Positions 565-45,600 of a stretch of 64,000 nucleotides of DNA are shown here, piece by piece. Every line of letters starts with the position of its first letter. Positions within the stretch are counted from its first letter, which is position 1. Source of the stretch: Octopus vulgaris (Eukaryota); assembly GCA_951406725.2 (NCBI GenBank), contig OX597819.1:103912001-103976000 (forward strand), read 5' to 3'. Both the position numbers and the translations under genes were made by a program. The notes below the pieces were generated by a model. That model was given only the letters and a program-made list of their open reading frames with translations, was not told the origin of the DNA and searched no databases.

Positions 565-656
565 ACGCCTTGTTATATTAAAAAGATGTGCTGAACAAGA
601 TAAGAACAATGCGTGCGTAAAATTCTTCAACAAAATCGCTGAGAATAACTGTCAAC
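565..656 (+). CDS. Gene 1 exon, type [31 protein letters not shown]
   Basis: ccag|a...c|gtgag, 92 nt, phase 2->1. Confidence 0.9.
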
Positions 657-3600
657 GTGAGAAACTTTTTAATTAATTGCATCTTATTTGAAAAGGTATT
701 GCATTGATGAACTATATTCTGAATAGAAATTATTTTATTAAGTATTTTTTCGTGTTCATATCCCAGATGTATCGATTTTTCATTCAAATGAATTTAAAAT
801 TTCAGAAAACAAATATAGTAAATAATGATTTACTTTCGACTCTAAAACTCCTGTTAGCTGTAGCGGCCATGTTCCAGAGCCCTTCTACGCTAATGATTTT
901 CTTGTCTATTCCTTGATGTTATGATTCTATCTTTTTCTGTTTTCGCTCCTTCTTTGAATTCCTGTCACATTCGATTGAAGAATGTACTTTGAAAGTCTAC
1001 TGGACTATTTTGATATTACCAACATCATATACCCCAACTACAAAACATAATATAGAAAACTATATAAAATGATACCAAAACTGGAAAACGAACATATCAA
1101 TAAACCTGGAAAACTTGTAGGCTATGACAATTATAATTATTTTTGAATCCAACTAATCACCATCGTTTGCTCTGCGCATAAATCGCAATACCCTATACAC
1201 AATATCTATTGCGTCAAACCATGTATTGTAGATTACAAATGATAACATATATTAAGATCAGATTCATATGTTTTAATTTGTATTGTATGAGGTAATCTTT
1301 CCCGAAACTTTGAAGATTATTCATGTTATAATGAAATAATATGTTAAATCTGCATATGTTGCAGCGGTCGACAATTGCACAAATTCCTTCAAAACAAGTT
1401 GCCCTGAAGCTGAAAAAGTCTATCCCATATGGAACCCAGACGCGGATTACTGCGAGTAAATATATTACTTTACTGATCTTACATTTATTGTTACATGGAA
1501 TTTTTACATGTTTATAGTTTTAATCATACAACTAACTGTTAATTACATTGGTTTGTTGGAGTGTATTGGATTCAGTTAGAAACAGAAATTGATTGTTGCT
1601 AAAATACGCCGATCTAAAAATGATGCATATCGACAACAATCTGACTAATCAACGTTTAATCAATTAAGAATTATATGGTTAATTGCATATATTGGCAAAA
1701 GTTTACAAATGTGCACCTTAAACAAATAGTTCTTTAACAATTCCCGGCAATTTTCATAGATAAAATGTTATGCTTTATAAAACTAATGAGAACGTCTCAT
1801 CATTAAAAACGTGCTTCTCAGAATTTTGTTATGCATACGCACACAAATACGATTAATAAGCATTTTTCGTAGTTTTTCATTCTAATTATTCACTTTTAAA
1901 CATAATTTTCCGCGAAATGCACCAGTATTTTTAAAATTCAATCTTCATAGCCCGATGTTAGAAATCGGGTTGAAAATTATAGTTTATCACTTGGTAAGAA
2001 ATGTCTATCCAAGAAATATATCAGCATGTGAACAAAATAAATATTACAAGATATTTAAAACCAGTACTATGTTTATGAAACCTAACGAAATTAATCTTAA
2101 TACCTGAATAATCGAAAACGTTGCCAAATTTTCATGTTTAAAATGCATTTAGTTTCTAATTTTTATATTCTAGTCGTTTGCGCGTATATCAAATATGTGC
2201 TACTACAAAGAAAGACAAGTGCAAACAACACTTTAACGAACTATTTCGCGCAATATGTGTAGGTAGGAGGCTTTTTTCTAAATTTTGTTTTTCATAATGA
2301 CAGAAATGACGCAACCTGTAAAATAGTAGATGTGGTCTACCACTTATCCCATCCATGTGTCTTTTATGCTTTGCAGATGGATAGAAACATTCAAACACTT
2401 TATTCTCTAATACTTAAACAAATATATGATAATGATGGCGACGATGAGATTGCTAAATAGACTGGATGGGAATTGAGTGATAGGATCAACATTAGCTTTT
2501 GATTCTTCTTAAGCATATACAATGTACGAAATTTTTTTTTACCAGCTGTGTTAGTTTTGGTGATGGTCTTGTTGACTGCTGTCTGGTTTGTCAGTAGAAC
2601 GGAACGATTCATTAATAAATAGATATGTGTAAATATCTCTCATTCTAAATAAAAGAAGCTCAGAAACACGATTTTCTTGTTTAGTTCCATGTAAGCCTCA
2701 TCTAGACAAATGGCTAAAGAGTTTGTAGTTCTGATCGTAATATTGCTTTTTTGTCTATCAGGGACTACATTGTCCAATATTACCAGCCAATTTTAAGACA
2801 ATACAGTGAGATTTCTTAGGGATTTAGCTGCCATTTCTAGACATTTCAGCAGCTACTTAAAGTCACATTTCTTGACTACTAACTGAGTATATAAATTAAT
2901 AATTTCTGTTCTTTCGACCAGGATAAGCTGATAGTCAACCCAAAGACAATAAATTAGTTGTAAAACTCCTCATATCGGGTCATGTTTCATTACAAACAAG
3001 ATCAAGCAATGATTCACTTGGTGTGTATGTGTGTGTGTGTGTGTGTGTGTGTGTGTGTGTGTGTGTGTGACTGAGGTAGGACTGAAGTTTTTTGTGCAGC
3101 CATAAATGATGTACGATGAGTGATGCAACTGGCATACCGGTTTCTTCACGATCTTCTGGCTATGCTTTTGAAGTTCATGGAAAATTCGTTTGCTTATGAT
3201 TTATAAAATGGGGTTGGTAGGACATATCTTTGTAATATTGGTTTCTGGAAAGTACACGTAAAATGCATTTTGATATTGACTGTTATGAATTTAGAATGGA
3301 CGAGCGGTTTGCTATTGAATACTTCATATTTGGAAGCTAACAAAATGTTCAAAGTTTGCTATTGTAGCAGAAATGTTACAGTAGTTTTCTGATGTCATTT
3401 TCTGATGTAAGTGGCGTAGCTTTCATTTCTTAATGCTTATGATCATGAAAATATTAATCAAACTATTTGGAAATATCAGTATGGGTAACAGCAGCCTCAC
3501 TATATATTATTATTAGCAATATCATTACAACTGTAGGTAACATACTTTATCAGATACTTTTCCAAAAGAAAACACAACAATTACATACAGATAACACACT

Positions 3601-42600: not shown

Positions 42601-45600
42601 TGATAAGTAAATATCTTACTTATACTGGATAGTAGAAACGTTAGAAGCTGTAGCAATTAGATCTCAGAATTCTTAAATGGTACACAATTTGTCAACACTA
42701 GTGATATTGACCCTCTCGACAACGATATTCTTTTATATGCAATAATTTTCCATATATTTGTATATTCCAGAGGCAGACAGGAATATCAAAATTGTGTTAT
42801 GAAGAAAAACAGAAGTGTTCAAAAGACCCTTGACATGCATTGTTTTATCTTTTTTTTTTCTTGCAATCGTAAGTGTTTCTATTAATTATGTTATTTTTTT
42901 GCGGTAGACTGCTGCATCGCTGTAAACTCCAAACAGAAGTTATATTAGTCAACTTACGTTTTACAATCAATTCAAATTAATGTTTGCGTGAGAAATATTC
43001 GCCTGCACCAATGTACTATACATCGAATTGTTTTTCCTTTCCTGATGGTGTTACAGAAGCGGTTCCATATGCGAGGCACTGGATTTTTCAAGCAGTAGGT
43101 GGATTTCCCTAGATCTTTCCGTTCTTTTTTCCTCTTTTCCAATAACTTCTGTGTCCGTCAACATTTTCCCTACCCGGTTCTCTTCTCCGCTCATGATTAC
43201 TTAATGAGTGTTCTTTGCTGCGTTATTAGATCATGCTAAAGAAGCATCCAATCTCGTATTTATTTTCTAAACATTTGTGATATTACTTTCTTCGATGCCA
43301 CTGTTTGGTGGCTGGTTTCGCGTAAATTCTCATTGGTAATCTTTTCCAAGTACGAGATTCCTTGGATATTTCCTCTTATGTCGATTGCCTGATTTTTCGT
43401 TGAATCTATATTTTAAGGATCTATATTTCGCATGCGTATGTAAGGTGTAGGGTACTTACGATGTACAATGTTTATACTCATTCTTATATTTTTGATGGAG
43501 GTGCTTTTGTCATCCATATTGGCTCGTCATCTTGCTGCACACTTCTGTACTTTTCTTTCCAGGAGTTTCGGTCTTGATCCTTGATCGATAATATTTGCCT
43601 CCAATTATATGAGCTCCTATTTATCGCCAGTATCTCAAATTTGACATAAATGTTTCTGTTGAAAACCGCGGAATTTATTCTAGGGCATTTTGTATATATT
43701 TTTGTTCAAGCTTCTTGGCGACGTCAGCAAGGTACCGTTAATTCAATTACTTTATCCACACTTACTATTATATAATCCACTGATCAGGTATTGTAGTTTT
43801 TTTTTTCGTATATTCTTTCCGAAGTTAACTATACTTACATCATCTTTAAATGCTATCGCTTACAATCAACATCAACAAAAGGCTGCAGAAGGAGAAGGTG
43901 TCAACTCAACCTGATGTTCCGTAGATTTCAGTTTTCGTTGAAGCCTTAGCGTAAAAGTATTACTAGAATAAATTAAACTTTTCATGATGTCCCAAAACCC
44001 ACCATTTCTGAAGTCCATGATGACATGCTAGAATTTTCGTCTATCTCGCAAGAAAGCATATTTGACGATCTACCTTCACCGATGCTTGCTCGTTGCTCTT
44101 CTGTGATATTATCTTTCTGAGTTCTTAATCTTTTCAGAATAATTTTGACTGCTACCTTGCTTGCAAGATTGATCTTCCTGATAGTATTATCAGTTAGAAA
44201 TAGTTACTTCCACTGCATTACTGAATTCTGTGCAAGAAAACTTAGGCATTAAAGTAACCGGAGTAGACAAATAAAGGAAATATCCTTCCATCGGTGACGT
44301 TCTAGTTGAGTAACCTACTGATTCACTATCTGGATTTTATTGTCAGGGTGTAGGAGACATACGCAAAGAAACTGAGGTTAGACCTCGGTAGAAGAACGAC
44401 TAATATTATTGGATATATTATCTACTTTATTAGATATTCCCATAGTATGATGACCATAGCATTTTGCAATATTCGAAATTAATATGAAACCTTCAGTGAG
44501 GTTTTTGACATAGTTTTTCAGCTTTTCTTTGTCCTACACCAAATTCAGTTTCTATTAGAACTTGCACCAAGCATCTTTGAAATGTTTAATCCATTCCACC
44601 TTCACTATCTTACGTTCTATCAGTGCGTGCACTGCACCATCACAGGCATAATTTTACAGGTATGCAAATATTACACTACATTTGTATACATGGGCCCGTG
44701 GATATCACCATGAGAATAAAAAAAAATAAAGATCAAAGGATCTGCCCTCAGCAGATTGTTCATGAGAATACAACTCTGACATCTAATTAAAATGTTCTTG
44801 ATGGATATGTTGACTGTAGACTGTGCCACATGATAAGCCTTTTCTCCTCTCCGCTAAATCGAAATACATATAATTTCTTGATCTGTGCCTCTCCAGTGTT
44901 CATACATTCCATATGTTAATCGTTCTTTCTTCCAAGAACTACTCCTGTCTGGTCACCAACAGGACATTTATCTCATCGAGTCGAATAGAGTAGGTACCAT
45001 TACCGGGTATATATTTACTTCTTGCTCTATTTATCTTGGTGTGTGGGTTGTAGCAGAGAGCAGCCCATGTTCAGTGTGAGCAGAATATGTTTCCTGTCGC
45101 AGCAGTGTAACATCAATGTTGTAGTATGGAGTACTATAATACCAAACATTAATAGCATACATGCAATATGTATTTAATATCTCACCGTAATGTGATATGT
45201 CTGTATTACCACTAATGCAGTGATATAAAGGGATATAAATAGAATATCAAGCCTTATCCTATAGATAGTTAACTTTGATTATAACGAAATTGTTTATAGA
45301 ATATCAGCGCAATGCAGTAACACTTCATGTAGATGCAATATGATATAATTTAAGTTTCATAATCAGAAGATAATCCCTTCACCGTTTCAAGGCCTCTGAG
45401 AGTAGTAGAGAAGACGAGCGGGGGAGAGATTGTCAAACCGAGAACGGAATACGGAATGCTTGCAATAGAAAGGATTCCACTGAAATATTTCAAGAACCAA
45501 ATAGTGATCATAAACTAGGTAACGTTAACTCCAGCAGCTGGATCAACTGACGTAGCAACTAGAATATTACTGCCAACTAAAACATCAGAATTAGCAAAGT

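Follow-up and report, generated by a model that had tools for sequence, protein, structure and literature searches.

Alternating half-domain exons in an Octopus vulgaris gene of tandem six-cysteine domains: phase pattern, block duplication and probable colinear splicing

Introduction

Can a gene whose exons encode alternating halves of a repeated domain shuffle those halves by splicing, or is the alternation what tandem copying leaves behind? The question is raised by a stretch of Octopus vulgaris DNA of 64,000 nucleotides (nt) (GenBank assembly GCA_951406725.2, contig OX597819.1, positions 103,912,001 to 103,976,000 of the forward strand), here called the window, with positions counted from its first letter. 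The window carries a long array of short exons, alternately of a B type (first half of a domain) and an A type (second half), belonging to a gene referred to as gene 1. An original prediction, made from the letters alone, saw in this array a Dscam-like potential for diversification, with chimeric domains arising by exon-pair skipping or by unequal crossover.

The answer reached here is a plainer one. With a probability of roughly 0.8, gene 1 is an octopus gene of 16 tandem six-cysteine (six-Cys) domains that is spliced in plain order to give one secreted protein of ~1016 residues. Its architecture is that of an ordinary tandem-module gene, and the comparison with Dscam fails on the layout that defines Dscam.

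The half-domain exon array

The exons of gene 1 were found by an exhaustive scan for AG..GT intervals, followed by profile searches with profiles built from those exons. The window holds 14 A exons (89 or 92 nt, phase 2→1) and 13 B exons (91, 94 or 100 nt, phase 1→2), as had been predicted. The two types alternate strictly from 565 to 42320, each exon carries three invariant Cys, and nhmmer E-values for the array exons range from 1e-23 to 1e-31 with profiles that include the exons themselves. Spliced in order, the 27 exons give 836 codons with 0 stops and 81 Cys. In the list that follows, "scan" denotes the AG..GT scan and "tree" the exon trees described below.

565 to 656, +, exon A3, second half of domain 3, phase 2→1 (scan, profiles)
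1365 to 1455, +, exon B4, first half of domain 4, phase 1→2 (scan, profiles)
2174 to 2262, +, exon A4 (scan, profiles)
4044 to 4143, +, exon B5, with an alternative in-frame acceptor at 4053 (scan)
5014 to 5105, +, exon A5 (scan, profiles)
5648 to 5738, +, exon B6, identical in P0002 and P0003 (scan, profiles)
7800 to 7888, +, exon A6, identical in P0003 (scan, profiles)
8596 to 8686, +, exon B7 (scan, profiles)
10085 to 10173, +, exon A7 (scan, profiles)
15101 to 15200, +, exon B8, opening four-exon block 1, gttcgt donor (scan, tree)
16141 to 16232, +, exon A8 (scan, tree)
16416 to 16506, +, exon B9 (scan, tree)
17485 to 17576, +, exon A9 (scan, tree)
20952 to 21045, +, exon B10, block 2 (scan, tree)
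21684 to 21775, +, exon A10 (scan, tree)
21977 to 22067, +, exon B11 (scan, tree)
23008 to 23099, +, exon A11 (scan, tree)
27346 to 27445, +, exon B12, block 3 (scan, tree)
28140 to 28231, +, exon A12 (scan, tree)
28377 to 28467, +, exon B13 (scan, tree)
29237 to 29325, +, exon A13, unusually divergent from the positional O. bimaculoides half (scan)
29999 to 30098, +, exon B14, block 4, gtgtgt donor (scan, tree)
30844 to 30935, +, exon A14 (scan, tree)
31867 to 31960, +, exon B15 (scan, tree)
32360 to 32451, +, exon A15 (scan, tree)
38909 to 39008, +, exon B16, block 5, incomplete (scan, tree)
42229 to 42320, +, exon A16, last complete domain (scan, tree)
42321 to 42770, +, A16-A17 intron, 451-nt, whose partner exon B17 is apparently deleted (intron alignment)
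42771 to 42868, +, exon A17, a degenerate orphan (profiles; both A16→A17 and B16→A17 occur in O. bimaculoides models)

The combinatorial core of the prediction also stands: any B donor can join any downstream A exon, and any A donor any downstream B exon, in frame and with the six Cys kept. Among the 325 non-adjacent joins, these B→A and A→B joins number 156 and have 0 junction stops; the other 169 are out of frame. The further statement that loss of one exon shifts the frame is borne out by the internal single-exon skips, all of which (25/25) run into a stop within 0-98 codons, but the frameshift from skipping an A exon is avoidable through GC-type donors. Such a donor lies 4 nt upstream of the GT donor in 11/16 gene 1 B exons (e.g. 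5735-5740) and would permit an in-frame B→B join.

The limits given for the array, 565 and 42868, were drawn too narrowly at one end and too simply at the other; the exons between them are real, but the gene extends upstream of the window and the alternation fails at the 3' end. Neighbouring genome stretches place the start of gene 1 ~12 kb upstream of the window, at a signal exon of 37 nt whose end is in phase 1; five more half-domain exons come after it, which brings gene 1 to 16 B and 16 A exons. The first exon of this gene, like that of its tandem paralog gene 2, is short, hydrophobic and signal-peptide-like as judged by eye and not by a predictor. The predicted colinear product has 1016 residues and 98 Cys. 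The six Cys of the domain are invariant in alignments, and their spacing is 7-16-8-7/8-11 in 15/16 gene 1 domains. At the other end, 42868 is the donor of the extra, degenerate A17 exon, which has no B exon ahead of it, and A16 and A17 are the sole A-A neighbours in gene 1. After A16, A17 is out of frame and meets a stop after 10 codons; after B16 it is in frame. A17 read after A16 is likely the last coding exon.

Origin of the alternating phases

Small genes on C18 carry the same two exons in single-domain form. They consist of a signal exon ending in phase 1, a B exon (1→2), an A exon (2→1) and an exon starting in phase 1 that encodes a hydrophobic tail resembling a glycosylphosphatidylinositol (GPI) anchor signal. 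Six such units have the signal, A and tail exons; the B exon is delimited in five of them, and the sixth B is a protein match. In gene 1, phase-1 boundaries lie on both sides of the B+A unit in 16/16 domains, and the module occurs singly on C18 and as 9, 11 and 16 copies on C6.

From the layout of the single-domain genes on C18, signal (1), B, A, (1) tail, it follows that B and A together make up a single phase 1-1 module, interrupted by an old phase-2 intron. Alternating phases, and cross-type joins that stay in frame, then result whenever a two-exon unit is copied in tandem. Relatives with a single domain, and so with nothing to shuffle, show identical phases; the pattern thus needs no shuffling device and no selection for shuffling, and comes about as a side effect of tandem copying.

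Fibronectin type III domains and some CCP repeats are familiar class 1-1 modules of two exons with an intron inside. Genes are known to grow by duplicating phase-symmetric exons internally, which leaves the frame unchanged, and tandem-module extracellular proteins likewise copy a symmetric unit (PMC3632108). The octopus domain differs from theirs in having no Pfam match at E ≤ 0.001 and in being found only in Octopus.

The C18 genes form a large cluster of small B/A genes with GPI-like tails (C18:15991253-17287262), the details given here coming from 140 kb of it. One record from this region, P0019 (a CAI record), looked like a four-domain protein with shuffled half-domains; this candidate was rejected, as its model runs together several genes that each possess a signal exon and a tail exon.

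Growth of the array

Gene 1 has two intact paralogs on C6. Gene 2, in tandem, has 9 domains, starts in the window and runs on through C6:103976001-104014305; gene 3 has 11 domains and lies on the minus strand ~0.7 Mb away. The best models of these C6 genes, with 9-16 domains, have no hydrophobic GPI-like tail. The part of gene 2 inside the window comprises the following exons.

53593 to 53629, +, gene 2 (tandem paralog), signal-peptide exon, ending in phase 1
59758 to 59857, +, gene 2, exon B1 (profiles, tree)
60381 to 60466, +, gene 2, exon A1 (profiles)

Exon trees were built on exons plus flanks, with 36 rows each, A17 left out and one boundary in gene 3 misplaced by a few bases. At positions 1-7, the three paralogs form a clade for 7/7 B and 7/7 A exons. 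From domain 8 onward, exons fall instead into even and odd clades, with support of 92/86 (B even), 98/96 (B odd), 100/99 (A even) and 90/95 (A odd, with exon A9 of gene 2 unplaced). Like pairs with like in these later domains: the B class and the A class agree in 9/9 domains from D8 to D16. Gene 2 has one four-exon block, gene 3 has two, and gene 1 has four and a half. Domains 1-7 are thus colinear in the three paralogs, and the later domains arose as a four-exon block was copied in register. Within-class chimeras among the blocks (e.g. D8 of gene 2) were considered and rejected, no informative approximately unbiased (AU) test being significant.

Copying would have proceeded by old unequal crossover in introns. 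Introns at the same position are homologous over their whole length (B9-A9 and B11-A11 are 72% identical over 900 nt), and homologous introns overall are 64-78% identical. The A16-A17 intron differs: its nt 17-348 align, at 65-67%, to the B13-A13, B11-A11 and B9-A9 introns over their 3' part alone, a sign that B17 has been lost by deletion.

Unequal crossover in homologous introns, as the original prediction proposed, therefore has a place in the past of the family, where repeat number has changed (16, 9 and 11), but apparently not in its present. One could go further and regard the array as an actively recombining locus, in which crossover now yields copy-number and chimeric alleles among individuals; the homologous introns at equivalent positions, the differing domain numbers of the paralogs and the deletion of B17 would all suit such a locus. 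Against it, the best exon identity between gene 1 copies is 80%, and units share no exact match longer than 31 nt. O. bimaculoides proteins keep the exon order of gene 1, and its models have both the D10-D16 order and the B17 loss in common with O. vulgaris, across a split dated to ~34 million years (PMC10700109). Contigs of one other DNA run are colinear, in pieces, over B12-A15 (one sample, a four-domain stretch), and the joints listed for these contigs all connect intronic repeat copies, with 51 more joints outside the list. The units of the array seem to have diverged too far for unequal crossover to be still under way, and a locus that is recombining today is highly improbable.

Two further observations concern sequence beside the arrays. 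The A15-B16 intron contains a recent tandem duplication of ~460 nt (34067-34880, with exact matches of 155, 96 and 91 nt). Downstream of gene 3, C6:104627440-104655549 (minus strand) holds five decayed half-domain exons with stops or frameshifts, which are remnants of a fourth paralog.

Splicing of gene 1 and its relatives

Junctions were counted by hand in seven database gene models, with P0010, a second isoform locally altered in the B4-A4 region, left out. Adjacent exons are joined at 58/63 junctions, in keeping with plain-order splicing.

Several points weigh against this reading. The apparent colinearity is drawn from gene models, which are neither reads nor independent of one another. 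Five of the 63 model junctions are non-adjacent: B6→A10, B11→A13, B16→A17 (in two models) and B6→B7. Exon A6 falls among the A exons of the opposite class (93/88), which hints at an old chimeric domain, but the alternative placement is not rejected (p-AU 0.23). Exon A13 matches the positional O. bimaculoides half at 11/29 residues, no better than A11 (13/30) or A7 (12/29), so a half swap is possible there. Any binding or recognition role, finally, would be deduced from the fast-changing surfaces of the domains alone.

The non-adjacent junctions differ in kind. B6→A10 and B11→A13 both sit in one O. vulgaris record, CAI9724703.1, and are exactly the type of join that the original prediction proposed. 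This record starts at an intronic ATG 19 nt before B6 and reads through the A13 donor, and because of these two features it looks like an ab initio prediction; its last exon (45716-45769, phase 0) occurs in this record alone. Two O. bimaculoides models contain B16→A17; another one runs B16→A16→A17 and stops after 10 out-of-frame codons, matching the prediction from the window. The choice between B16→A16 and B16→A17 at the 3' end is likely the single alternative splice of the gene. B6→B7, in LOC128248155 (two O. bimaculoides RefSeq models), fits the GC donor at -4 and costs one Cys.

Ordinary, limited exon-pair skipping might accompany the main colinear form, giving a few whole-domain (B+A) or chimeric (A+B) skips. 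The 156 in-frame joins without a junction stop would allow it, CAI9724703.1 contains two joins of this sort, the models disagree on B16→A16 versus B16→A17, and some introns are long and repeat-filled (3-6 kb), which also favours skipping. The ab initio appearance of CAI9724703.1 counts against this, as do the RefSeq isoforms, none of which skips a whole pair (0/6 for the related LOC128249887 and 0/2 for LOC128248155). Donor strength speaks against it as well. When matches to the 9-nt consensus are counted, which is a crude measure, B and A donors score 6.12 and 6.38 in gene 1, and 6.56 and 6.44, and 6.18 and 6.10, in the paralogs. The weak B donors singled out earlier do exist (gtacat, gttcgt at 15200, gtgtgt at 30098), but B donors as a class are barely below A donors; gtacat and gttcgt recur in gene 3, whose O. 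bimaculoides model is fully colinear. Limited pair skipping is accordingly unlikely, and plain-order splicing remains the preferred account.

RNA-labelled contig sets (three runs on 27300-32500 and four on 15000-23300) cover intronic repeats and leave the exons essentially uncovered, and so have no bearing on expression or splicing; no RNA run is listed as containing 27300-32500. The covered sequences include short interspersed intronic repeats (27499-27650, 29600-29760 and 19973-20112), which reach very high depth in RNA-labelled and DNA runs alike.

Comparison with Dscam1

Dscam1 of Pancrustacea likewise contains exons duplicated in tandem, each of which codes for a portion of an extracellular domain. 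It makes mutually exclusive choices within clusters of same-type exons by docking-selector pairing, whereas in the octopus gene the types alternate and all exons can be included. No cluster of consecutive same-type alternative exons was found in the array, where A and B exons alternate and join in one open frame. A scan for docking-like complementarity (12-mers with ≤1 mismatch in the 275 nt before each exon, without G-U pairs, bulges or downstream selectors) reached at most 4/17 for A and 4/16 for B exons, with 3-4 in controls.

The strongest form of the shuffling idea is a stochastic, selected device that joins B and A halves combinatorially into a large repertoire of chimeric recognition domains. 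Every chimeric join does keep the frame and the six Cys, and residues other than Cys change fast, as in recognition proteins; the ratio of nonsynonymous to synonymous substitution rates (dN/dS) is 0.65-0.80 when the conserved Cys are left out. Such a device is nevertheless the least probable of the explanations considered, and hardly to be expected. Without same-phase alternatives, default splicing is productive and nothing forces a choice; docking complementarity, in the simple scan above, does not rise above controls; B and A classes have kept their pairing in every later duplication; and the phases are identical in single-domain genes. A Dscam-like diversification, for which the original prediction saw the potential, is thus unlikely.

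A weaker form asks only for many in-frame chimeric isoforms in expressing tissue, made by non-adjacent B/A joins and further by B→B joins through GC donors. This too is very unlikely. If true, the isoforms would be a splice-built repertoire of fast-evolving, neuritin/RGM-N-like binding domains, unlike the mutually exclusive choice of Dscam, and frequent chimeric joins would be a new way to build diversity; the pointer to them so far is one doubtful gene model. In the tandem-module gene favoured here, diversity would come from gene and domain duplication and fast amino-acid change, not from splice choice.

Fold and evolution of the domain

AlphaFold2 models of two relatives (alignments of 5 and 8 sequences, mean predicted local distance difference test score ~70) give the B half a long helix and a short turn, and the A half two helices. 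Within the array, the AlphaFold model of the gene 2 ortholog has a single long stretch of low confidence (residues 327-357), and that stretch is the one B half with no A partner. That a B half lacking its partner is modelled with low confidence suggests that the two halves fold together. Each domain would fold as a disulfide-bonded three-helix unit needing both halves.

Known folds offer leads but no membership. The N-terminal domain of RGM is a three-helix bundle with three disulfides (PMC7354924), which the predicted three-helix unit of the octopus domain may resemble. There are differences from RGM-N and neuritin: the octopus domain has a shorter first helix and last linker, its alignments lack the RGD/RGN loop motif that goes with BMP/GDF binding in RGM, and there is no vWD domain. 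The Pfam profile RGM_N (PF06535) gives E-values of 0.017 and 0.83, its scores of 15.8 and 10.4 bits falling short of the 24.2 required; an RGMB alignment spanning C-x8-C-x7-C has E 0.22. Neuritin (PF15056) emerged as a lead in the Atlas with a score of 0.80; NRN1 gave no match at E ≤ 1, and a search of the genome, where the exons are short, with the NRN1 profile found none. An ESM Atlas search with part of P0001 gave no usable match. With a three-domain model, Foldseek returned 0 matches at E ≤ 0.001, and the best VIA-align Z was 5.7, to generic helical hairpins, with RGM absent among the 50 matches listed. Single exons searched against Pfam matched in 0/14 B and 1/15 A cases, and the one match (PHD-type, E 0.023) was dismissed as chance. 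Judged from sequence scores below the cut-offs, the likeness to RGM-N and neuritin appears weak.

Copies compared with one another have a dN/dS of 0.53-0.69, and in 4/5 comparisons the interval stays below 1; 5/7 of the exonic differences listed in the other DNA run change a residue. These values fit a constrained Cys frame with fast-changing surfaces.

Relatives and distribution

A profile search of 1.84 billion representative proteins returned nine; among the seven looked up, six are from Octopus and one is an unrelated, unnamed repeat, the other two being long proteins with weak matches. O. bimaculoides has orthologs of all three genes: LOC106874482 (gene 1, partial), LOC128248155 (gene 2) and LOC128248050 (gene 3). 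These, together with O. sinensis LOC118763774 and O. vulgaris CAI9724703.1, have the same domain and exon order, with 41-100% identity per half-domain; an O. vulgaris record matches gene 1 without a difference in four halves, and an O. sinensis record likewise in four. The database relatives from octopus are all named "uncharacterized" or "hypothetical", and none found covers the full 16-domain gene 1; CAI9724703.1 holds only four of its halves.

The small six-Cys proteins of GPI type (LOC128249887, A0A0L8GPX5 and the C18 cluster) share with gene 1 the B/A exons, their phases, the phase-1 signal exon and the Cys pattern. They differ in size and ending, having 1-3 domains and a hydrophobic GPI-like tail where the C6 genes have 9-16 domains. 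The gene 1 product would be a soluble, beads-on-a-string relative of these small anchored members, presenting many divergent binding surfaces.

A homolog search among proteins of 30-73 residues found none; relatives in squid or other molluscs may exist, and two unnamed mollusc clusters score 0.90 and 0.89 in the Atlas. Six record ids of the family are absent from the main texts of the literature searched; supplementary tables may list these genes. On the sequences compared, the family seems undescribed and apparently restricted to Octopus.

Mobile-element remnants

Stretches in and around the array are presumably remnants of mobile elements. By eye, we take 39500-40730 (+, in the B16-A16 intron) to be a long interspersed nuclear element (LINE) remnant of reverse-transcriptase type, and 6200-7050 and 62600-63880 to be Tc1-like and mariner-like transposase remnants. 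A stretch on the minus strand at 50100-51000, with a Cys-rich part, is also presumably LINE-like.

Concluding remarks

What remains of interest at this locus is an undescribed, poorly annotated family, in which a cluster of small, single-domain genes of GPI type exists alongside separate, long secreted forms of 9-16 domains. The family is a reasonable candidate for a role in recognition or secretion, and its long genes are a clean example of growth by duplication of a four-exon block.

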